Source of the DNA: a virus
Lineage: Duplodnaviria > Heunggongvirae > Uroviricota > Caudoviricetes
Reading direction: 5' to 3' (one strand)
Virus record (IMG/VR): IMGVR_UViG_2684622620_000017
Span: 1 to 25,267 of that record
DNA length: 25,267 bases
A program made the translations under genes and the position numbers. Below, one piece after another: positions 1,144 through 25,267 of the stretch (position 1 is the stretch's first letter; every line of letters starts with the position of its first letter). Below the pieces are notes generated by a model, which saw only the letters and a program-made list of their open reading frames with translations, searched no databases and had not been told where the DNA came from.

Positions 1144-1824
1144 TTAATGCATTTTAGTTACATCTATGTTTTTATTGATTGTCTCTTTGTTACTGGAAAG
1201 TCTTTGTTCTTTTCTTTTAATGTATAACTCCCAACGAATATTATTCATTATGATAGCGTAGATATTAAAAATAAAAGTCTTTACTACTAACACTAAGTAA
1301 ATAAGGCTAGTCCCTATAACACAGTATCCAAATTTAATAATTAATTCTTTTATCGATTTTGAATATGGAAATAAATCAATTATATTGCCAATTATTCCAT
1401 CTTTTTGACAAAAGAGAATTATTATTAGATAAATGAAAGTAAACGTAATAAATGAGATGAAAACTTTCATAAATGCCATAAAGTTATATTTTAACGTGGG
1501 CATCTGTGTTTTTTTATGTTGTATTGACATCATCTGAAGAAACATCTCGGGTTTGGATAGTGTTGCAAATATTGTGAAACCAGCAATGAGAAAACCTAAG
1601 GTTGTCACTGCAAAGTTAAAACCAATCAAAGCCCAGTTTCTAATGTCAGATACTAAATGAGACATATCCTTCTCAATAAAAAAAGAGTTTGTTAATAAAA
1701 AAATAGATGCTGTGAGCAAAATGCAAATATGGAATGTACTAATAGTAATCCGTTTGCAGAGCAAGTAAACATCCCAAAGGTTTTTCTCTTTGGTTATTTC
1801 TTTAGCATCTATTTTATTTATCAT
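1144..1824 (-). CDS. Hypothetical multi-pass inner-membrane protein (226 aa), distal gene of an AT-rich two-gene cassette; candidate membrane effector
   Basis: Translation shows 4-5 long hydrophobic segments (e.g. ITISTFHICILLTASIFLLTN, WALIGFNFAVTTLGFLIAGFTIFATL, FMAFMKVFISFITFTFIYLIIILF); AT-rich codon usage unlike flanking phage genes; start overlaps the stop of the upstream ORF (ATGA at 1821-1824). Confidence 0.7.
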   Translation of the reverse strand: MINKIDAKEITKEKNLWDVYLLCKRITISTFHICILLTASIFLLTNSFFIEKDMSHLVSDIRNWALIGFNFAVTTLGFLIAGFTIFATLSKPEMFLQMMSIQHKKTQMPTLKYNFMAFMKVFISFITFTFIYLIIILFCQKDGIIGNIIDLFPYSKSIKELIIKFGYCVIGTSLIYLVLVVKTFIFNIYAIIMNNIRWELYIKRKEQRLSSNKETINKNIDVTKMH

Positions 1825-2849
1825 CGACCAAACCTTTCATATATATTGCTAATAATTCTAATCGTCTTTTGTGAAAGAGAACGGGGTAGAGATATCTTAC
1901 CTTCTTCTACAAGATTTTCATACCGCTCATAACTTTCATTTGCAGCTACTACCGTATCCTTTGATAATTCATTCATCTCACTTAACAAAACAAAGTCATC
2001 ATTGCTACCTTTGATTATATCACCATTGTCATCATATCCTTTAATATTTATTCCTGAATTAGCCAATCTGGTTGCTGATGTGAGTTGTTCTAAAACAGCA
2101 CCATGATTCAAGCCTGAATCGGTGTTTGAAAAGCGAATAGATGTAGAAATACTTCCCATTTCGTCTCCGGCACTTTCAAGTGACTCCCAAAATTCGTCGT
2201 TATCAATTTCTTCTTGATTTGTAGGGAGAAGTTTTACTGAGACATTTTGGATTTTATTAAAATTATCAATAAATTGCTCTAGGCTTTGTTTGTCAGTTAA
2301 CGGCGTTATTCTTAGCTTCGGGCGTTTGATTTCGTTCCGTAAGCTTTTTTTAGTGACTCGAGGTAAGTCAGGGTTTTCTTTGCGTTCTTCTTGTGCGGTT
2401 TCGTATAAATGAGATATGTATTTTTCATATTCTATGTTTAAGAAACACTGACTTGTTGACTGAAAGTTTTGAATTGTGGGAGCACCACTAACTTCCTTGC
2501 AAAGAATTAATCTGTGAGTGTTTAATATTAGAAGAAAGAAAGAGCTCGGGGCTGTTTCAAGCTCTTTATGATCTTCAACCAAATCAGCACCATCAAATAC
2601 TTGTTCTCTGGTTAATAATGTATTCTTAATAATCCGACCTTTAATTCCGAGTACTGGGGGTGTTGCTTCTTCGTCAAGTATGACGCATTCAGTATCAATG
2701 AAAAAGAACTCTGATTTGTCAGATATTCTGCGGATGTTTGCCATCTCCAAAAAAGAGGGGAAAACAATTTCATCATAATAGTCTAGCAAAACATCATCAC
2801 CAAAACGGAGAGTATAATTTCCAAATTCGAGTTTTTTTATAAAATCCAT
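1821..2849 (-). CDS. Hypothetical soluble protein (342 aa), proximal gene of the AT-rich two-gene cassette; no family recognised
   Basis: Long AT-rich ORF; GAGG RBS about 8 nt upstream of the ATG at 2849; starts 15 nt downstream of the cI stop; no P-loop or other motif I can identify by eye. Confidence 0.7.
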   Translation of the reverse strand: MDFIKKLEFGNYTLRFGDDVLLDYYDEIVFPSFLEMANIRRISDKSEFFFIDTECVILDEEATPPVLGIKGRIIKNTLLTREQVFDGADLVEDHKELETAPSSFFLLILNTHRLILCKEVSGAPTIQNFQSTSQCFLNIEYEKYISHLYETAQEERKENPDLPRVTKKSLRNEIKRPKLRITPLTDKQSLEQFIDNFNKIQNVSVKLLPTNQEEIDNDEFWESLESAGDEMGSISTSIRFSNTDSGLNHGAVLEQLTSATRLANSGINIKGYDDNGDIIKGSNDDFVLLSEMNELSKDTVVAANESYERYENLVEEGKISLPRSLSQKTIRIISNIYERFGR

Positions 2850-9715: not shown

Positions 9716-10051
9716 TTACGAATGATCATTCTGTTTAGTCTTCATGAGAAAATCCCGAATCTTTGCCAAGTTTGAATTTTCGGGGATTGAATCCATGTAC
9801 GGATCACGCTCAAACACTAATTGCTCAGATTCAACGAAAGCCTGCCACTCTACTGGGTCTAGCTCAAATCCCATTGCTGTCATATCACTTTCATCTTCCC
9901 CCTCGATCCAGTGGACTAAATAAAACAATTCATCATCAGGAGAATCATCCTCACCATCAACAATATCAACATCGGTTACAGTGATACGTAGGGTGGGATC
10001 GATTTTTGAAACATAAATTCCTAACTGTGGTATAGGGGGAATATTGTTCAT
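9716..10051 (-). CDS. Small, strongly acidic hypothetical protein (111 aa)
   Basis: AGGAG RBS about 8 nt upstream of the ATG at 10051; translation is rich in Asp/Glu (e.g. DVDIVDGEDDSPDDELF, EGEDESD); lies in the accessory region between the DinI-like gene and the cos-like motif. Confidence 0.6.
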   Translation of the reverse strand: MNNIPPIPQLGIYVSKIDPTLRITVTDVDIVDGEDDSPDDELFYLVHWIEGEDESDMTAMGFELDPVEWQAFVESEQLVFERDPYMDSIPENSNLAKIRDFLMKTKQNDHS

Positions 10052-10582: not shown

Positions 10583-12919
10583 ATGATTGAAGAGGTAGTT
10601 ATTGACAAGGTAGGCTCATATAATGGCCCTACGCAGCTTTTACATGGACTTTCTAAATTTAACTATTTATATGGAGCTAATGGTGCAGGTAAAACAACTA
10701 TAAGTAAAATTATTAATGACCCTGAACAATATCCAACATGTCCGATTAAATGGAAAAATAATATATCTTTAATAAGCTACGTATATAATAAAGATTTTGT
10801 TGAAAGAAATTTTAGTCAAGATAAAATTAAAGGTGTATTTACCCTTGGTAGCGATCTTAAGGAGGATGAAGAGAAACTAATATCTCTTAAAGAAGAAAAA
10901 AATAAGCTAATGGAATCTATTATAGCAAAGGAAAAGTTAATAGATGGTGGTGATAATGAATTAGGCGTTATTAAAAAAATCGAAGACCATGAAAAATCTT
11001 TTAAAGATTCATGTTGGAAGCAAAAAGTAAAACATGACAATGTGTTCTCAAAGGCTTTTGAGGGATTAAGGAATAGTAGTGAAAAATTTAAAGCCAGAGT
11101 GTTGGCTGAGTATGAAAATAATACATCAGAAGTTTGCTCAATAGCAGAGTTAATTGAGAAAGCAAAAATTGTTTTTTCTACTGAATTGACATCACATGTA
11201 TCAATTACAATTCCATCCTTCAATGGGATAGATGATATTTTGAGTAGGGAAATTTGGAGTGAGCGTATTCTAGGGAAAAAAGACGTTAGTGTTTCAGACT
11301 TAATTACAATGCTCAATAATAGTGATTGGGTTAAGGAGGGTTTAACATATTTCAGTAAATCTAATCCCAAGTGCCCATTCTGCCAGCAGGATGTAAATGA
11401 TAATGTATTTGATAATCTTTCATCATATTTTGATAAAACATATGAGTTAAAAAAAAGAGAAATCGATGCATTGGTTTTACAATATGAATATCAACTTAAT
11501 AATATCTTGAAGGCGATAGATGATATAAGGGCGATTAAATCTCCATTCATAAATTATGAAGTGTTTGAGGATAAGGCTAAGATAGTATTATCTGAATTAA
11601 ACAAGAATTTTGAATTGGCAAAAAATAAACGCAATTTTTTAAGTGAATCAGTTCATTTTAGTGACTTAAGTGAAGTTGTTGATGATTTTATTTCTTTTTT
11701 GAATGATTCAAATCTATTGATAGATAATAATAACAAAATACATAGTAATAGAAAGGTAGAGGCTAGTAATCTTTCTAAGCAGATATGGGCATATATCGTA
11801 AAGGTGGAGTTAAAGTCTGAAATAACTTCTTACCGTAGCAAATCTGATAAATTTAATAGGACGTTACAAGGACTTAAATCTGGGATAGAAGAAGACAAAA
11901 AGAAGTTAATGTTAAATACTTCGGCTATTGAGGCAATTGAGTCTAATAAAACCAGTACTCTTCCAACTATTACAAAAATTAACAAGATTCTGGACTCTTA
12001 TGGCTTCAAAAATTTTTACTTAAAACCCTCCGAAGATAAAAAGCATTATATGATAGTGAGAGATAGTGGAGATAATGCTCGTACAACCCTTAGTGAGGGA
12101 GAAAAGACATTTATCACTTTTTTGTACTTTTATAGCCTTGTTAGAGGGAGTGATAATGCATCAGGTGTTTTAGATGATCGTGTTGTAGTATTTGATGATC
12201 CAATTTCAAGTTTAGATAGTGATATTCTGTTTATTGTAAGTTCGTTGATTAAAGATTTAATGGAGGATGTTCGTAAGGATGAAGGAAATATTAAGCAAAT
12301 TATATTCCTTACTCATAATATTTATTTTCATAAAGAGTTGACTTTTAATACCAAAAGATCCGGTAATCAAGCAATGAAAGAGGAGACTTTTTGGATTGTA
12401 AGGAAAAAAGGGAAGGTTTCATATCTTGAAAAGTGCGAATCAAACCCAATAAAAACGTCTTATGATTTGCTCTGGTGCGAATTGAGAAGAACAGACATTA
12501 ATAATAATACTATACAAAATACAATGCGAAGGATTTTGGAGAATTACTTTAAGATATTAGGTGGGATGGATATTAGGAAGCTTGAGTGTCATTTTTATGG
12601 TGATGAAAAAATCATATTTAAATCTTTAGTGTCATGGATTAATGATGGTTCTCATTTTGCAGGTGATGATCTTTATATGAATTTAGATACGGAGTCTGTG
12701 CAAAAATATTTAATTGTTTTTCAGAAGATATTTGAATGTAGTGAGCATACTGCCCATTACAAAATGATGATGGGTGAGTTTTATAAACCGTTAAATGAGT
12801 CACTTCATCTACAAAATGAGTTTGATATAGATGATAGTGCGAATGATGAGTATGCTTCGTCAAAAATTGAGATAAAAGATGGAATAAACACATCTCTACA
12901 TAGCAACACATATTTGTAA
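10583..12919 (+). CDS. AT-rich 778-aa ABC-type (Rad50/SMC-like) ATPase with coiled-coil insertion and CxxC motif; RloC/PrrC-like candidate anticodon nuclease / abortive-infection protein
   Basis: Walker A GANGAGKTT near the N-terminus; ABC signature-like LSEGEKT, Walker B/D-loop VVVFDDPISSLD and H-loop FLTHN about 480-560 aa downstream; long Lys/Glu-rich, likely coiled-coil insertion with a central CPFC (zinc-hook-like); C-terminal region has RRILE (R-x3-E) followed by conserved His candidates, reminiscent of the PrrC Arg-Glu-His nuclease triad; strong RBS GAGGATTAGAGG. Confidence 0.6.
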   Translation: MIEEVVIDKVGSYNGPTQLLHGLSKFNYLYGANGAGKTTISKIINDPEQYPTCPIKWKNNISLISYVYNKDFVERNFSQDKIKGVFTLGSDLKEDEEKLISLKEEKNKLMESIIAKEKLIDGGDNELGVIKKIEDHEKSFKDSCWKQKVKHDNVFSKAFEGLRNSSEKFKARVLAEYENNTSEVCSIAELIEKAKIVFSTELTSHVSITIPSFNGIDDILSREIWSERILGKKDVSVSDLITMLNNSDWVKEGLTYFSKSNPKCPFCQQDVNDNVFDNLSSYFDKTYELKKREIDALVLQYEYQLNNILKAIDDIRAIKSPFINYEVFEDKAKIVLSELNKNFELAKNKRNFLSESVHFSDLSEVVDDFISFLNDSNLLIDNNNKIHSNRKVEASNLSKQIWAYIVKVELKSEITSYRSKSDKFNRTLQGLKSGIEEDKKKLMLNTSAIEAIESNKTSTLPTITKINKILDSYGFKNFYLKPSEDKKHYMIVRDSGDNARTTLSEGEKTFITFLYFYSLVRGSDNASGVLDDRVVVFDDPISSLDSDILFIVSSLIKDLMEDVRKDEGNIKQIIFLTHNIYFHKELTFNTKRSGNQAMKEETFWIVRKKGKVSYLEKCESNPIKTSYDLLWCELRRTDINNNTIQNTMRRILENYFKILGGMDIRKLECHFYGDEKIIFKSLVSWINDGSHFAGDDLYMNLDTESVQKYLIVFQKIFECSEHTAHYKMMMGEFYKPLNESLHLQNEFDIDDSANDEYASSKIEIKDGINTSLHSNTYL

Positions 12920-15905: not shown

Positions 15906-16739
15906 ATGACAGTGAAAGCAAAGCGTTTTCGCATCGGGGTGGAAGGTGCCACCACCGACGGACGTGAAATCCAGCGTGAATGGCTGGAACAGATGGCAGC
16001 CAGCTACAACCCGGCGGTGTATACCGCGCTGATTAACCTTGAGCACATCAAGTCTTATCTGCCGGACAGCACCTTTAACCGCTACGGCAAGGTGACGGCG
16101 CTGTTTGCTGAAGAAATCACGGAAGGTCCGCTGGCAGGCAAGATGGCGCTGTATGCCGACGTTGAGCCAACGGAGTCCCTGGTGGAACTGGTGAAAAAAG
16201 GCCAGAAATTATTCACCTCTATGGAAGTCAGCCCGAAGTTCGCTGATACGGGCAAAGCCTACCTGGTCGGCCTGGCTGCCACTGATGACCCTGCCAGTCT
16301 GGGTACGGAAATGCTGACATTCAGCGCCAGTGCAGCCCATAACCCGCTGGCAAACCGCAAGCAGAATCCTGCCAATCTTTTTACCGCTGCAGAGGAAACG
16401 GTGATCGAACTGGAAGAAATCCAGGACGACAAACCGTCCCTGTTTGCCCGCGTCACGGCGCTGTTTACCAAAAAAGAGCAGTCCGATGACGCCCGGTTCT
16501 CTGATGTGCATAAGGCCGTGGAGCTGGTCGCCACTGAGCAGCAGAACCTGAGCGCACGCACCGAAAAATCCCTGTCTGAGCAGGAAGAACGTCTGTCTGA
16601 GCTGGAGACTGCCCTGCAGGCACAGCAGACCGCCTTTAACGAACTGGTGAATAAGCTGAGTCATGAAGACAGCCGCCAGGACTACCGCCAGCGTGCAACA
16701 GGCGGTAACGCCCCCGCTGACACTCTGACCAATTGCTGA
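15906..16739 (+). CDS. O: Capsid scaffolding protein, P2 gpO type
   Basis: 277-aa ORF with GGAG RBS; position between P and the capsid gene; acidic, coiled-coil-like C-terminal half typical of scaffolds. Confidence 0.8.
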   Translation: MTVKAKRFRIGVEGATTDGREIQREWLEQMAASYNPAVYTALINLEHIKSYLPDSTFNRYGKVTALFAEEITEGPLAGKMALYADVEPTESLVELVKKGQKLFTSMEVSPKFADTGKAYLVGLAATDDPASLGTEMLTFSASAAHNPLANRKQNPANLFTAAEETVIELEEIQDDKPSLFARVTALFTKKEQSDDARFSDVHKAVELVATEQQNLSARTEKSLSEQEERLSELETALQAQQTAFNELVNKLSHEDSRQDYRQRATGGNAPADTLTNC

Positions 16740-16755
16740 TGGAGCACAAAACCTG

Positions 16756-17814
16756 ATGAAGAAGAATACCCGCTTTGCTTTTAACGCTTACCTGCAGCAG
16801 CTGGCGCGTCTGAACGGTGTGGCAGTTGAAGAACTGTCCAGCAAGTTCACCGTGGAGCCGTCTGTGCAGCAGACGCTGGAAGACCAGATCCAGCAATCCG
16901 CCGCTTTCCTGACGCTGATTAACGTCACGCCAGTGACCGAGCAGTCTGGTCAGCTGCTGGGGCTGGGTGTTGGCAGCACCATTGCCGGAACCACTGATAC
17001 CACCGCAAAAGAGCGTGAGCCTGTCGATCCGACGCTGATGGTCGATGTGGAATACAAATGCGAGCAGACCAACTTTGACACGGTGCTGACCTACGCGAAG
17101 CTGGACCTGTGGGCGAAGTTTCAGAATTTCCAGGTGCGTATTCGTGACGCGATCGCGAAACGTCAGGCACTGGACCGCATCATGATCGGCTTTAACGGCG
17201 TGAAGCGTGCGAAAACCTCAAACCGTAGCGAAAACCCGCTGCTGCAGGATGTGAATAAAGGCTGGCTGCAGAAAATCCGTGAGGATGCACCGGATCACGT
17301 CATGGGCAGCACCACCACGGGCGGTGAAACCACACCGGGTGCGGTGAAAGTCGGGAAAGGTGGCGAATATGCCAACCTGGACGCCGTGGTGATGGATGCC
17401 GTCAATGAGCTTATCGACGTGGTCTACTAGGACGATGACGATCTGGTGGTGATTTGCGGTCGTGAACTGTTGTCTGACAAGTATTTCCCACTGGTCAACA
17501 AAGAGCAGGAAAACAGTGAAAAACTGGCTGCCGATATGATCATCAGTCAGAAACGCATGGGTGGCCTGCAGGCCGTGCGTGCGCCGTTCTTCCCGCCGAA
17601 TGCACTGCTGATCACCCGTCTGGATAACCTGTCCATCTACTGGCAGGAAGACACCCGCCGCCGTTCAGTTATCGACAACCCGAAACGTGACCGGATTGAA
17701 AACTTTGAATCCGTTAATGAAGCCTATGTGGTTGAGGACTACCGCTGCGCCGCACTGGTGGAAAACATCCAGATTGGTGATTTCAGCGCCGCCGCAGCCG
17801 AAACCGGAGCGTAA
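16756..17814 (+). pseudogene. N: Major capsid protein gene (P2 gpN type) interrupted by an in-frame TAG at 17428-17430
   Basis: ORFs 16756-17430 and 17446-17814 are in the same frame, separated only by TAG (...NELIDVVY*DDDDLVVICGRELL...); combined length of about 352 codons matches the P2 major capsid protein (about 357 aa). Confidence 0.7.
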
Positions 17815-17817
17815 TCC

Positions 17818-18468
17818 ATGAGCCTGAGTCCCGCACGGCAGCATCGCCTGCGCGTTCAGGCTGAACAGGCCGCCCGCGAGGGCGGCAGTGTTCGCCACGC
17901 ATCGGGCTATGACCTGATGCTGCTGCAACTGGCGGAAGACCGCCGCCGTCTCAAGGGCGTTCAGTCCACGGTCAAAAAAGCGGAAATCAAGGTGGAGCTG
18001 CTGCCGAAGTACGCCGCCTGGGCAGAGGGTGTCCTGGCTGCCGGAGGCGCTCAACAGGATGACGTGCTGATGTACGTGATGCTGTGGCGCATTGATGCCG
18101 GAGATTATGCCGGGGCGCTGGAGATCGGGCGTCATGCCCTGCGTCATGGCTGGGTGATGCCGCTGGGTAACCGCAACGTGCAGACCGTGCTGGCAGAGGA
18201 AATGGCAGACGCCGCGCAGAGCGCAATGCTTGCCGCCACCGGCTTTGATGCCGATCTGTTGCTGCAGACGCTGGAGCTGACAGACGGTCTGGATATGCCG
18301 GACCAGTCACGGGCGCGTCTGCATAAAGCGATTGGCGCTGTCCTGAGTGAAAGCAATCCGGCTTCCGCCCTTAATCATCTCAACCATGCGTTACAGCTTG
18401 ATCCCCGCTGTGGCGTGAAAAAAGACAAACAGCAGCTGGAGCGCAGACTGCGCAATGACAGCCGCTGA
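17818..18468 (+). CDS. M: Terminase small (endonuclease) subunit, P2 gpM type
   Basis: 216-aa ORF directly after the capsid gene, as in P2 (O-N-M). Confidence 0.8.
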   Translation: MSLSPARQHRLRVQAEQAAREGGSVRHASGYDLMLLQLAEDRRRLKGVQSTVKKAEIKVELLPKYAAWAEGVLAAGGAQQDDVLMYVMLWRIDAGDYAGALEIGRHALRHGWVMPLGNRNVQTVLAEEMADAAQSAMLAATGFDADLLLQTLELTDGLDMPDQSRARLHKAIGAVLSESNPASALNHLNHALQLDPRCGVKKDKQQLERRLRNDSR

Positions 18469-18563
18469 CAGAACGTGCCCCCGCGCACGGGCGGCACGGG
18501 GTGGCGAAAGGCACTGCCACATCAAAACCCCGTCCACCGCCCTCTATTTCAGGAGAAAGCAGC

Positions 18564-19028
18564 ATGAAGTTTGTTGCGCCAGAACAGGCACCGGAACAGG
18601 CGGAAATCATCAGAAATACGCCGTTCTGGCCTGATGTGGACCTGTCGGAGTTTCGCAGTGTCATGCGCACTGACGGCACGGTGACGCAGCCGCGTTTAAA
18701 GCAGGTTGCGCTGTCGGCAATTTCGGAGGTCAACGCAGAGCTGTATGAGTTTCGCAGACGCCAGCAGATGCTGGGGTATGCCTCGCTGGCAGAGGTTCCG
18801 GCGGAACAGCTGGACGGCAAAAGTGAGCGCATTCATCACTATTTCAACGCGGTTTACTGCTGGGCACGCGCCATGCTCAACGAGCGTTATCAGGACTATG
18901 ACGCCACGGCATCCGGTGTGAAGCGGGGCGAGGAACTGGCGGAAGCAAGCGGTGATTTGTGGCGTGACGCCCGCTGGGCCATCAGCCGGGTGCAGGATGC
19001 GCCGCACTGCACAGTGGAGCTTATCTGA
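18564..19028 (+). CDS. L: Head completion/stabilisation protein, P2 gpL type
   Basis: Start placed at the ATG at 18564, preceded by AGGAG (the longer ORF from 18501 lacks an RBS); stop overlaps the X start. Confidence 0.75.
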   Translation: MKFVAPEQAPEQAEIIRNTPFWPDVDLSEFRSVMRTDGTVTQPRLKQVALSAISEVNAELYEFRRRQQMLGYASLAEVPAEQLDGKSERIHHYFNAVYCWARAMLNERYQDYDATASGVKRGEELAEASGDLWRDARWAISRVQDAPHCTVELI

Positions 19029-20322: not shown

Positions 20323-20747
20323 ACCGGTTGCTGCTGGTTGTGCTGGCGTTATTACTGGCGGCGCTGGGCTGGCAGACGTGGCGGCTGGCTGATGCCAGCC
20401 AGACCATCAGCACGCAGGCAGACGAGCTGCAGAGCAAAAGCCAGGCACTGGCAAAGAGCAACAGCCAGCTTATCAGCCTGTCCATTCTGACTGAAACCAA
20501 TAACCGGGAGCAGGCGCGGCTCTATGCCGAAGCAGAACAGACCAGCGCACTGCTGAGTCAACGACAACACCGGATCGAGGAACTGAAACGTGAGAACGAG
20601 GATTTACGCCGCTGGGCTGATACTCCTTTGCCTGCTGACATTATCCGGCTGCGGGAACGTCCGACACTCACCGGAGGTGCAGCTTACCGTCAGTGGTTGT
20701 CCGCGAGTGACGCCGTGTCGGCTGGATCAGGCAGCGCCGCGCACTAA
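20319..20747 (+). CDS. lysB: LysB, Rz-like inner-membrane spanin
   Basis: 142-aa protein with N-terminal transmembrane anchor (LLLVVLALLLAALGW) and coiled-coil periplasmic part; ATGA overlap with lysA. Confidence 0.75.
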   Translation: MNRLLLVVLALLLAALGWQTWRLADASQTISTQADELQSKSQALAKSNSQLISLSILTETNNREQARLYAEAEQTSALLSQRQHRIEELKRENEDLRRWADTPLPADIIRLRERPTLTGGAAYRQWLSASDAVSAGSGSAAH

Positions 20748-20880
20748 CGGTGATCTGAACGCGTTGCTGGATGAAACGGAGGCCGCCTGGGCGGTCTGTG
20801 CAGACAAAGTGGACATGATTATTGCGTGTCAGGAGCGAAACAGTGAACAAACCACAATCCCTGCGCCACTCCCTCAATAA
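20590..20880 (+). CDS. lysC: LysC, Rz1-like outer-membrane lipoprotein spanin, encoded in an alternative frame overlapping lysB
   Basis: Signal peptide with lipobox (LLTLSGC), GTG start; embedded in/overlapping the 3' part of lysB as in P2. Confidence 0.65.
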   Translation: MRTRIYAAGLILLCLLTLSGCGNVRHSPEVQLTVSGCPRVTPCRLDQAAPRTNGDLNALLDETEAAWAVCADKVDMIIACQERNSEQTTIPAPLPQ

Positions 20881-24209: not shown

Positions 24210-25267
24210 GCACAAAATTTTATACCCTGCTGACGGATATTGGCGCGGCGAAACTTGCCAGCGCCGCCGCGCTCGGTGTGCCGCTAAAAATTACCCATAT
24301 GGCGGTCGGCGATGGCGGCGGAGTATTGCCAACGCCAGACTCAAAGCAGACTGCACTGGTAAATGAGAAACGCCGGGCTGCGCTGAATATGCTCTATATC
24401 GACCCGCAGAACAGCAGCCAGATTATTGCCGAACAGGTGATCCCTGAAAACGAGGGCGGTTGGTGGATACGTGAAGTGGGCTTGTTTGATGAGTCCGGGG
24501 CATTGATTGCCGTGGGCAACTGCCCGGAAAGCTATAAGCCGCAACTGGCTGAAGGTAGCGGGCGCACTCAGACCGTGCGCATGGTGCTGATTACCAGCAG
24601 CACGGACAATATCACCCTGAAAATCGACCCTGCCGTAGTGCTGGCAACCCGCAAGTATGTGGATGACAAGGCACTGGAGCTGAAGGTGTACGCGGATGAT
24701 CAGATGGCAAAACATCTTGCCGCACCGGACCCGCATTCACAGTATGCACCCAAAGAAAGTCCGACGTTTACCGGGACACCCAAAGCGCCAACGCCAGCCG
24801 CAGGGAATAACACCACGCAGATTGCGACCACCGCGTTTGTTCAGGCGGCTCTGACGGCTCTTATTAATGGTGCGCCAGCCACGCTGGACACGCTGAAAGA
24901 AATAGCCGCAGCCATTAACAATGATCCGAAATTCAGTACCACCATTAACAATGCGCTGGCACTGAAAGCGCCGCTGTCGAGTCCGGCACTCACCGGAACG
25001 CCAACCGCACCTACTGCGGCACAGTCGGTCAACAATACACAGATTGCCACCACGGCATTTGTGAAATCGGCGATTGCGGCAATGGTGGGTTCTGCACCTG
25101 CGGCACTGGATACACTGAATGAACTGGCTGCGGCGCTGGGGAATGACCCGAACTTTGCCACGACAATGCTTAATGCGCTGGCAGGTAAACAACCGCTGGA
25201 CAATACGCTGACTAATTTGAGTGGAAAGGATGTAGCTGGTCTTCTCGCATACCTTGGTTTGGGAGAA
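24206..25267 (+). CDS. H: Tail fibre protein H (P2 gpH type), 5' part only; ORF runs off the right edge of the window
   Basis: Open frame from the ATG at 24206 (overlapping the I stop) to the window end (354 codons, no stop); Ala/Thr-rich with repeated TQIATTAFV collar-like motifs typical of P2-family tail fibres. Confidence 0.8.
   Translation, partial: MSTKFYTLLTDIGAAKLASAAALGVPLKITHMAVGDGGGVLPTPDSKQTALVNEKRRAALNMLYIDPQNSSQIIAEQVIPENEGGWWIREVGLFDESGALIAVGNCPESYKPQLAEGSGRTQTVRMVLITSSTDNITLKIDPAVVLATRKYVDDKALELKVYADDQMAKHLAAPDPHSQYAPKESPTFTGTPKAPTPAAGNNTTQIATTAFVQAALTALINGAPATLDTLKEIAAAINNDPKFSTTINNALALKAPLSSPALTGTPTAPTAAQSVNNTQIATTAFVKSAIAAMVGSAPAALDTLNELAAALGNDPNFATTMLNALAGKQPLDNTLTNLSGKDVAGLLAYLGLGE
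24814..25200 (+). repeat. Intragenic tandem duplication (about 74 codons apart) within tail-fibre gene H
   Basis: Protein segments NNTTQIATTAFVQAALTALINGAPATLDTLKEIAAAINNDPKFSTTINNALALKAPL and NNTQIATTAFVKSAIAAMVGSAPAALDTLNELAAALGNDPNFATTMLNALAGKQPL are clearly homologous. Confidence 0.7.

Follow-up and report, generated by a model that had tools for sequence, protein, structure and literature searches.

The window, i.e. the whole stretch of 25,267 nt that was analysed, holds two open reading frames, 16756-17430 (224 aa) and 17446-17814 (122 aa), which lie in one common frame and are parted by a TAG codon at the place where a P2-like prophage carries its major capsid gene N. This locus raises the question of whether a capsid gene has really been broken here, which codon the TAG replaced and by what route, and whether the prophage could still produce particles.

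Evidence for a single, interrupted capsid gene

The window corresponds to the left two-thirds of a P2/186-like prophage. Its early and cargo genes comprise the integrase, two unknown genes, CI, CII, Fil, the Dam methylase, gpA (the replication endonuclease), DinI and a cargo ATPase, and its late genes the portal, large terminase, gpO, gpN, gpM, gpL, lysis and baseplate genes. The prophage also carries a candidate defence gene, PDC-S06. In relatives and in one carrier genome it adjoins rcdA-ybjJ-ybjI of the E. coli chromosome, and these flanking genes identify the host as E. coli; the part to the right of position 25267 is known from a single carrier locus (L005), up to the invertase gene. The order of the head block is that of the P2 family, with the portal and large terminase genes on the other strand, followed by O, N, M and L, and gene N is the sole major capsid gene of the prophage. 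The features of the gene N transcription unit are:

15906..16739, + strand: gpO scaffold/protease gene, upstream partner in the unit, intact (relatives)
16756..17814, + strand: major capsid gene N, P2 family, HK97 fold, 352 codons, broken at codon 225 (7jw1, PF05125, CDS of relatives)
16756..17427, + strand: predicted 224-aa truncated product, with the N-arm, E-loop, spine helix and the A-domain to the end of the sir-loop region (PF05125 1-213)
17428..17430, + strand: amber TAG in the place of CAG, Q225 (P2 gpN Q227), C>T at 17428 (homologues, L027)
17431..17814, + strand: C-terminal third of gpN, predicted to be untranslated, covering the remaining A-domain and the C-terminal portion of the fold (PF05125 221-327)
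17446-17814, + strand: mechanical ORF with a GTG start, 122 aa, within the C-terminal third (ORF list)
17818-18468, + strand: gpM small terminase gene, downstream in the unit, intact (mapping to relatives)
18564-19028, + strand: gpL head completion gene, downstream in the unit, intact (mapping to relatives)

The TAG at 17428-17430 is in frame with the ATG at 16756, the codons at 17422-17451 being GTC TAC TAG GAC GAT GAC GAT CTG GTG GTG, and translation of 16756-17814 through the stop gives 352 codons with one internal stop and a TAA end at 17812-17814. The Pfam family PF05125 (Phage_cap_P2) matches the 224-aa piece at model positions 1-213 of 327 (E-value 1.4e-89) and the 122-aa piece at positions 221-327 of 327 (E-value 5.5e-52), and residues 1-350 of the read-through product, with Q for the stop, align with the solved structure of P2 gpN (7jw1, E-value 4.6e-135). 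At the same place annotated relatives possess a single 1059-nt CDS, termed 'phage major capsid protein, P2 family', which is flanked by the genes for the gpO scaffold and the small terminase. Because the two PF05125 pieces are contiguous, the alignment with 7jw1 is colinear and the relatives have one CDS, the two ORFs are to be read as one gene and not as a chance pair. This bears out the initial annotation, which took them jointly for a P2-type major capsid protein. Of its second ORF, the frame stands and the start at 17446 as a gene boundary does not: the homologous frame resumes at 17431, and 17446 is merely the first in-frame start codon past the TAG, as called mechanically. Nor does the capsid protein naturally end at the TAG with a separate gene behind it, a possibility which the same annotation had raised, as the homologues are single proteins of 350-365 aa. 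The unbroken frame of ~350 aa by which members of PF05125 are recognised is interrupted in the window by the TAG at codon 225, so that gene N, as judged from its sequence, is a pseudogene of this family and not a functional member.

The remainder of the window is in good order. When every annotated CDS of two relatives was mapped onto it, 34 of 34 other genes were found to be full-length and ungapped, with no internal stops, and neither deletions nor IS insertions were found in the window; the amber codon is its only visible lesion. This lesion leaves an essential lytic gene, the sole capsid gene, broken in a prophage integrated next to rcdA, which is what characterises a defective prophage. 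TAG also serves as the ordinary terminator of the apl-like gene and of gpJ, both of the same lengths as in relatives, and the genetic code is therefore ordinary; a recoded TAG was rejected on these grounds. An element-encoded suppressor tRNA was likewise rejected, since no tRNA genes were found in the window or in six carrier and related loci.

The replaced codon and the probable mutation route

The equivalent of codon 225 encodes Gln in 21 of 21 aligned homologues (59-99% identity), among them P2 gpN, in which it corresponds to Q227. All intact relatives read TAC CAG GAC here, and in the closest intact sister prophage (L027) gpN differs from that of the window at 17428 alone, where the codon is CAG. 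Since Gln is present in all 21 homologues and CAG in the closest intact sister, the lesion is identified by alignment as CAG>TAG (Q225*), a single C>T transition at 17428. The expectation of the initial annotation, that a one-base change from a sense codon would be seen against intact homologues, is thereby confirmed, and among the options that it listed an inactivating nonsense mutation is the best supported.

The ancestral TAC CAG GAC contains CCAGG, a Dcm site, of which 17428 is the inner cytosine: TACCAGGAC of the intact relatives corresponds to TACTAGGAC in the window, the second C being the altered base. Three CCWGG sites are present in gpN, and of the 27 transitions in the gene that would create a stop only two, at codons 126 and 225, fall on methylated positions:

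17130..17134, + strand: second Dcm site able to give an amber by C>T, TTC CAG GTG, codon 126; CCAGG intact in the window (enumeration)
17427..17431, + strand: CTAGG, from the ancestral Dcm site CCAGG, with 17428 at the position of the inner (5-methyl) C (relatives read TACCAGGAC)

E. coli usually carries dcm-vsr, and Vsr repair converts T to C at T:G mismatches in CTWGG. In this species CCWGG is a hotspot of G:C>A:T mutation via deamination of 5-methylcytosine, to which Vsr repair is only a partial counterweight (PMC13250602, PMC3527292, PMC9520237). As far as the summary of Cherry 2018 in PMC9520237 tells, the inner C of CCWGG mutates by C>T ~8-fold more frequently than other cytosines do in natural E. 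coli and Salmonella. Codon 225 shows three marks of this hotspot, namely an ancestral CCWGG, a mutated inner C and a C>T (G:C>A:T) transition. In the proposed route, the 5-methylcytosine at 17428 would have been deaminated to thymine and would have escaped very-short-patch (Vsr) repair (CCAGG>CTAGG). Methylation of this site followed by deamination is the most likely cause, on evidence that is circumstantial.

Distribution of the allele

The exact 224-aa product was found in 21 contigs in one reading and in 13 in another count, the sources being GCA_002016545.1, GCA_002016455.1, a 5.17-Mb contig of GCA_036872155.1 and several unrelated SRA runs. Over 14-18.5 kb the carrier contigs share 99.96-100% identity with the window; the locus in SRR6154944 is identical to it, and the contig of GCA_036872155.1 shows 3 mismatches to its left arm in 11 kb. 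As a few sites vary among the carriers, these represent separate isolates of one small clade. The presence of the same base in independent assemblies at this level of identity refutes the sequencing error which had initially been considered as a source of the TAG.

The Q225* allele is rare. With a 51-mer query it was found in 0 of ~900 complete E. coli genomes carrying the gene, it is present in 0 of 42 phage records, and exact-pattern scans of GTDB species representatives, IMG/VR and JGI metagenomes gave no matches.

Intact sisters and the age of the stop

A look-up with the exact gpI of the window revealed four intact sister prophages (L027-L030), which differ from the window by 6-7 bases in 11,664 and all read CAG at codon 225; GCA_030759775.1 is an example of an intact sister lysogen. 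With intact sisters only 6-7 bases away in 11.7 kb, the stop is judged to be recent. Fixed changes that set all the carriers apart from all the sisters number only two, namely the stop and a synonymous substitution in gpS.

Compared with its best relatives among complete genomes, gpN of the window has three differences, all non-synonymous (D124N, V134A and Q225*), and in the homologue alignment (n=21) D124 is invariant and position 134 holds either V or I throughout. The reading of D124N and V134A as decay that followed the stop was rejected, because L027-L029 have both N124 and A134 together with CAG (L030 has N124 and V134); the two replacements are therefore older than the stop. Relaxed selection in the amber lineage was rejected as well: the Fisher test of recent changes (7 non-synonymous:3 synonymous) against the deep divergence among intact phages (169:797) gave p = 4e-4, a confounded comparison, as the polymorphisms among the intact sisters themselves (6:4) are similar to those of the carriers. 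Substitutions private to the window versus three relatives (58 synonymous and 17 non-synonymous) are uninformative given the mosaic ancestry. No follow-on decay was seen, which is expected for a recent stop and equally fits a gene used through suppression. Two indels are found only in carriers, a loss of 3 bp in gpL of L007 and of 1 bp in the portal gene of L008; both come from short-read Logan assemblies and may be errors.

Recurrence of the stop and a census of gpN nonsense alleles

The exact 122-aa downstream product is present on 60 contigs, compared with 13 for the N-terminal fragment of the window, and its contexts revealed the same TAG on two further gpN backgrounds, which makes three in all:

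TAG allele of the window clade: intact partner L027, 1 nt apart in gpN
TAG allele L024 (14 of the 24 contigs read): intact partner L001 (E. coli NZ_CP062853), separated by the TAG base and one other in 5.4 kb
TAG allele L026: intact partner phage 500465-1, 3 nt apart in gpN

Within gpN, L024 and L001 are 1 nt apart. The window and L024 alleles differ from each other only at 17125 and 17156, and L026 differs from both by 24-26 nt, with allele-diagnostic bases at 17418 (10 nt upstream of the stop) and 17470 (42 nt downstream). Source names attached to Q225* products include E. coli and Salmonella Paratyphi B. Since the TAG is found on three backgrounds, each with its own intact partner 1-3 nt away, comparison of these alleles argues for at least two independent C>T events at 17428, and probably three; the window and L024 alleles could be linked by a single crossover, and two origins are therefore firm.

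To see this recurrence against the other stops which the gene can acquire, we counted contigs with the exact predicted truncated products for 15 sites at which a stop can arise, with the commonest allele as the background, and for five control lengths, which end before codons unable to become a stop in one step. The counts were:

Q225* (Dcm): 48, with 13 window-type contigs in addition, i.e. 61
Q126* (Dcm): 23
W119* (non-Dcm): 143
Q104* (non-Dcm): 17, all short
W296* (non-Dcm): 16
Q297* (non-Dcm): 16
Q137* (non-Dcm): 14
Q251* (non-Dcm): 14
Q172* (non-Dcm): 13
Q123* (non-Dcm): 9
Q164* (non-Dcm): 9
Q265* (non-Dcm): 3
Q66* (non-Dcm): 1
Q272* (non-Dcm): 0
Q339* (non-Dcm): 0
Controls, five lengths: 0, 0, 1, 3 and 1

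Nonsense alleles of gpN were thus seen at 13 of the 15 sites, on 339 contigs in total, while one intact gpN allele alone accounts for at least 1000 contigs. Capsid-gene nonsense alleles are a regular, low-frequency natural state in this prophage family, and as they occur at most of the possible sites, no special mechanism has to be invoked for the one at codon 225. The two Dcm sites, Q225* and Q126*, rank 2nd and 3rd of the 15 (the chance of both being in the top three is 0.029, with contigs that are not independent events); W119*, with 143 contigs, exceeds Q225*, and the other non-Dcm sites (n=12) range from 0 to 17. Contig counts reflect clonal sampling, and the ranking therefore agrees with a mutational hotspot without being a proof of it.

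Predicted consequences for the prophage

In the P2 procapsid, pentamers and hexamers of gpN form a T=7 lattice, and gpO and the portal are further constituents (PMC7552001). P2 gpN has the HK97 fold, modelled to residue 346, with the sir loop of the A-domain at residues 183-224 (PMC7552001). The TAG, at the position of P2 Q227, is located just past this loop, so that the remainder of the A-domain is lost, as is the C-terminal portion of the fold. Translation would end after residue 224, and the last third of the HK97-fold protein would be missing; without it, capsomers and procapsids should not form. The 224-aa fragment should thus be unable to assemble, and head assembly should be lost. Separate expression of the C-terminal part from a functional second ORF at 17446 was rejected, as the ribosome-binding site is weak: the Shine-Dalgarno pairing before 17446 amounts to -3.9 kcal/mol, compared with a median of -6.7 for 34 real genes, and is no better than that of 20% of arbitrary gpN positions.

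Polar amber mutants of P2 exist and are suppressed by Psu of P4 (PMC7552001), and no promoter-like site was found on the plus strand between the stop and gpM. Given that P2 ambers can be polar and that no such site was seen ahead of gpM, the expression of gpM and gpL may be lowered by amber polarity. Within the window, the genes for tail, lysis, replication and immunity functions and the cargo genes are all intact, and the repressor, integrase and cargo genes are unaffected by the stop. Upon induction the prophage would still excise, replicate, make tails and lyse the cell; it would release no infectious particles, nor would it help P4-type satellites.

Alternative explanations

We consider it very probable that the window carries a genuine, recent Q225* mutation, which arose by C>T at the inner cytosine of a Dcm site and left a head-defective P2/186-like prophage next to rcdA. 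A misread base in a genome that really has CAG would fit with the single base which separates the TAG gpN from its otherwise near-identical intact sisters; it can practically be dismissed, as the same base recurs in two NCBI assemblies and in unrelated, independently assembled SRA runs, with small real differences among them, and two more sequence backgrounds carry the TAG. A naturally split capsid gene, whose two polypeptides would assemble together, might be suspected from the gene callers, which give two ORFs that both match PF05125, and it is just as close to negligible: all homologues are single proteins, the intact sisters are one base away and the second ORF has no credible ribosome-binding site. 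A prophage that remains productive, with gene N used via an amber suppressor tRNA of the host or via appreciable read-through, would explain the lack of secondary decay and the synonymous nature of the sole other fixed difference between carriers and sisters. This conditional use of the allele is very improbable nonetheless, since neither the window nor the carrier loci contain tRNA genes, two genes of the prophage use TAG as a normal terminator, and the allele, found in 0 of ~900 complete genomes and 0 of 42 phage records, is a rare and young one that is not being maintained. Furthermore, a T=7 head needs several hundred copies of gpN, and unsuppressed read-through of UAG in E. coli is far below 1%, which also speaks against such use. 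Programmed read-through or recoding was rejected because the stop is not conserved, CAG being found in 21 of 21 homologues and in all intact sisters.

The recurrence of the genuine Q225* mutation could be explained otherwise in two ways. The TAG may have arisen once and spread between prophage backgrounds by homologous recombination, as these prophages are mosaic (~16467-18750 of the window is near-identical to the L001 type, with flanks 2-3% divergent) and the window and L024 alleles differ at two sites only, 272-303 nt upstream of the stop. We regard a single origin as unlikely, because moving the stop into the L026 allele, which is of the 500465-1 type, requires a tract of <52 bp, and because of the intact partner 1-3 nt away from every TAG allele. 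Somewhat less likely still is that selection drives the recurrence, with hosts that gain by dropping the capsid while keeping immunity, defence cargo and perhaps tails. The spread of nonsense alleles over 13 of 15 sites and 339 contigs and the presence of PDC-S06 are in its favour; against it, the lysis genes are intact and induction still kills the cell, so that a capsid knock-out gives the carrier no protection, each allele is rare, complete genomes show no excess, and mutation bias at the Dcm site is enough to explain the recurrence at codon 225. Or perhaps CCAGG/CTAGG could act as a biased, partly reversible capsid switch, turned off by deamination and back on by Vsr repair? This is a speculation to which we give very little credence, slightly less than to the conditional use of the allele. 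If it were true, lysogens would keep generating, and sometimes rescuing, head-less variants with immunity, defence cargo, lysis and free contractile tails, and such variants, if favoured, would be a first step to a tailocin-like or domesticated element.

Implications and relation to known systems

On the reading of Q225* as a genuine and recent mutation, the prophage of this strain should be scored as head-defective, probably with no virion spread, transduction or help to P4-like satellites; it would still express its repressor, integrase and cargo and would probably still be able to lyse the cell on induction. It offers a clean natural case of the first step of a prophage towards defectiveness, taken by a single base change at a hotspot that can be predicted, with near-identical intact sisters as controls. 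For annotation pipelines, two adjacent calls of a 'P2 family major capsid protein' denote one broken gene. The mutational mechanism and point-inactivated prophages are both already well known, and the understanding of phage biology and mutagenesis is unchanged; what the analysis adds is mechanistic, a stop at a Dcm hotspot that has arisen repeatedly.

Amber mutants in gene N of P2 are known from classical laboratory genetics. They share with the allele of the window a nonsense codon in the capsid gene and the expectation of no heads, of tails being made and of possible polarity on M and L; they were selected on a suppressor host, whereas the allele described here is natural and its phenotype is predicted from the sequence. 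In lacI, Coulondre, Miller, Farabaugh and Gilbert reportedly found in 1978 that CAG>TAG amber hotspots at C-CAG-G are hit repeatedly. The likeness lies in the conversion of C-CAG-G to TAG by C>T at the inner cytosine of a Dcm site and in the repeated hits, and the difference in the setting: the lacI mutants were laboratory-selected in a chromosomal repressor gene, whereas here natural isolates carry the change in a prophage structural gene, known from sequence alone. Natural hypermutation (Cherry 2018) concerns the same C>T change, that of the inner C of CCWGG, in natural populations of E. coli and Salmonella, yet it is a matter of genome-wide statistics, whereas our case is one loss-of-function site with a much weaker basis for enrichment (contig counts and three backgrounds). 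Finally, like cryptic prophages that arose by point inactivation, the prophage in the window is complete and integrated and has lost one essential morphogenesis gene; compared with cryptic prophages in general, it represents the earliest stage, with a single lesion and 6-7 differences in 11.7 kb from its intact sisters.

Additional changes in prophages with broken and intact capsid genes

The prophages that share the TAG at codon 225 of gpN, the major capsid protein (the amber clade), differ from one another at several further positions. Codon 77 of terL (window 15535, minus strand) is AGG (Arg) in the window and in one other carrier, L006. It is GGG (Gly) in all other carriers, in all intact sisters with CAG at gpN codon 225, and in the three more distant relatives compared. 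The large terminase thus acquired this Gly to Arg missense mutation within the amber clade. Two carrier assemblies exhibit deletions: L008 lacks 1 bp close to the 3' end of the portal gene (window equivalent 13002), and L007 lacks 3 bp of gpL (window equivalent 18632–18634), with the reading frame preserved. These deletions could represent either further decay or errors of short-read assembly.

Two relatives, L011 (NZ_CP062853.1) and L012 (NZ_CP189734.1), possess an intact capsid gene, yet have defects elsewhere: in one of them the replication endonuclease is frameshifted and the tail-fibre assembly gene is partial, and in the other the tail-fibre gene is truncated. Another stop allele of gpN, W119* (codon 119, window equivalent 17110–17112), is found in other genomes, where the 118-aa product occurs on 143 contigs, the highest count among the gpN stop alleles examined. 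Its codon lies outside any Dcm site, and its abundance probably reflects one successful clone.

Tail-fibre inversion

Comparison of near-identical prophages revealed opposite orientations of a segment comprising the C-terminus of the tail fibre and the assembly chaperone (L005:17451–20675 vs L009:13449–16673), and the segment is likewise flipped between the intact sisters L028 and L029. It adjoins a Resolvase-family invertase gene, just past the end of the window (25267). One orientation yields a fibre of 500 aa with a TAP of 147, the other a fibre of 519 aa with a TAP of 200. Since both orientations occur in near-identical prophages, an invertible host-range switch appears to be active in this lineage, including the amber carriers.

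Annotation and limits of the window

20632–20880, plus strand, LysC (Rz1-like), start aligned to annotated relatives

The annotated start of LysC aligns to a CTG codon, both in the two annotated relatives and in the window; RefSeq has either a non-canonical or a misplaced start here. Positions 1–3 of the window are the integrase stop codon, thus attL and the host junction fall outside it; in the carrier locus L020, rcdA lies ~100 bp past the point matching the window start.

Cargo gene and a possible defence pair

10583–12919, plus strand, 778-aa AAA_13 ATPase, between DinI and the portal gene
1144–2849, minus strand, two overlapping genes (226 aa and 342 aa), between integrase and CI

The interval 9716–10051 (minus strand) is listed together with the ATPase gene. 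Among the PADLOC families, the ATPase hits PDC-S06, a candidate defence family (E-value 1.6e-266), and shows weaker similarity to PrrC and LmuB; in relatives this slot holds other genes, e.g. DUF262, DUF4062 and STM3845. Searches of Pfam and PADLOC gave no match for the 226-aa and 342-aa proteins, which may constitute an undescribed defence pair. The same slot in relatives is occupied by an AAA ATPase and a DUF4276 protein, a pair known as the PARIS defence system.
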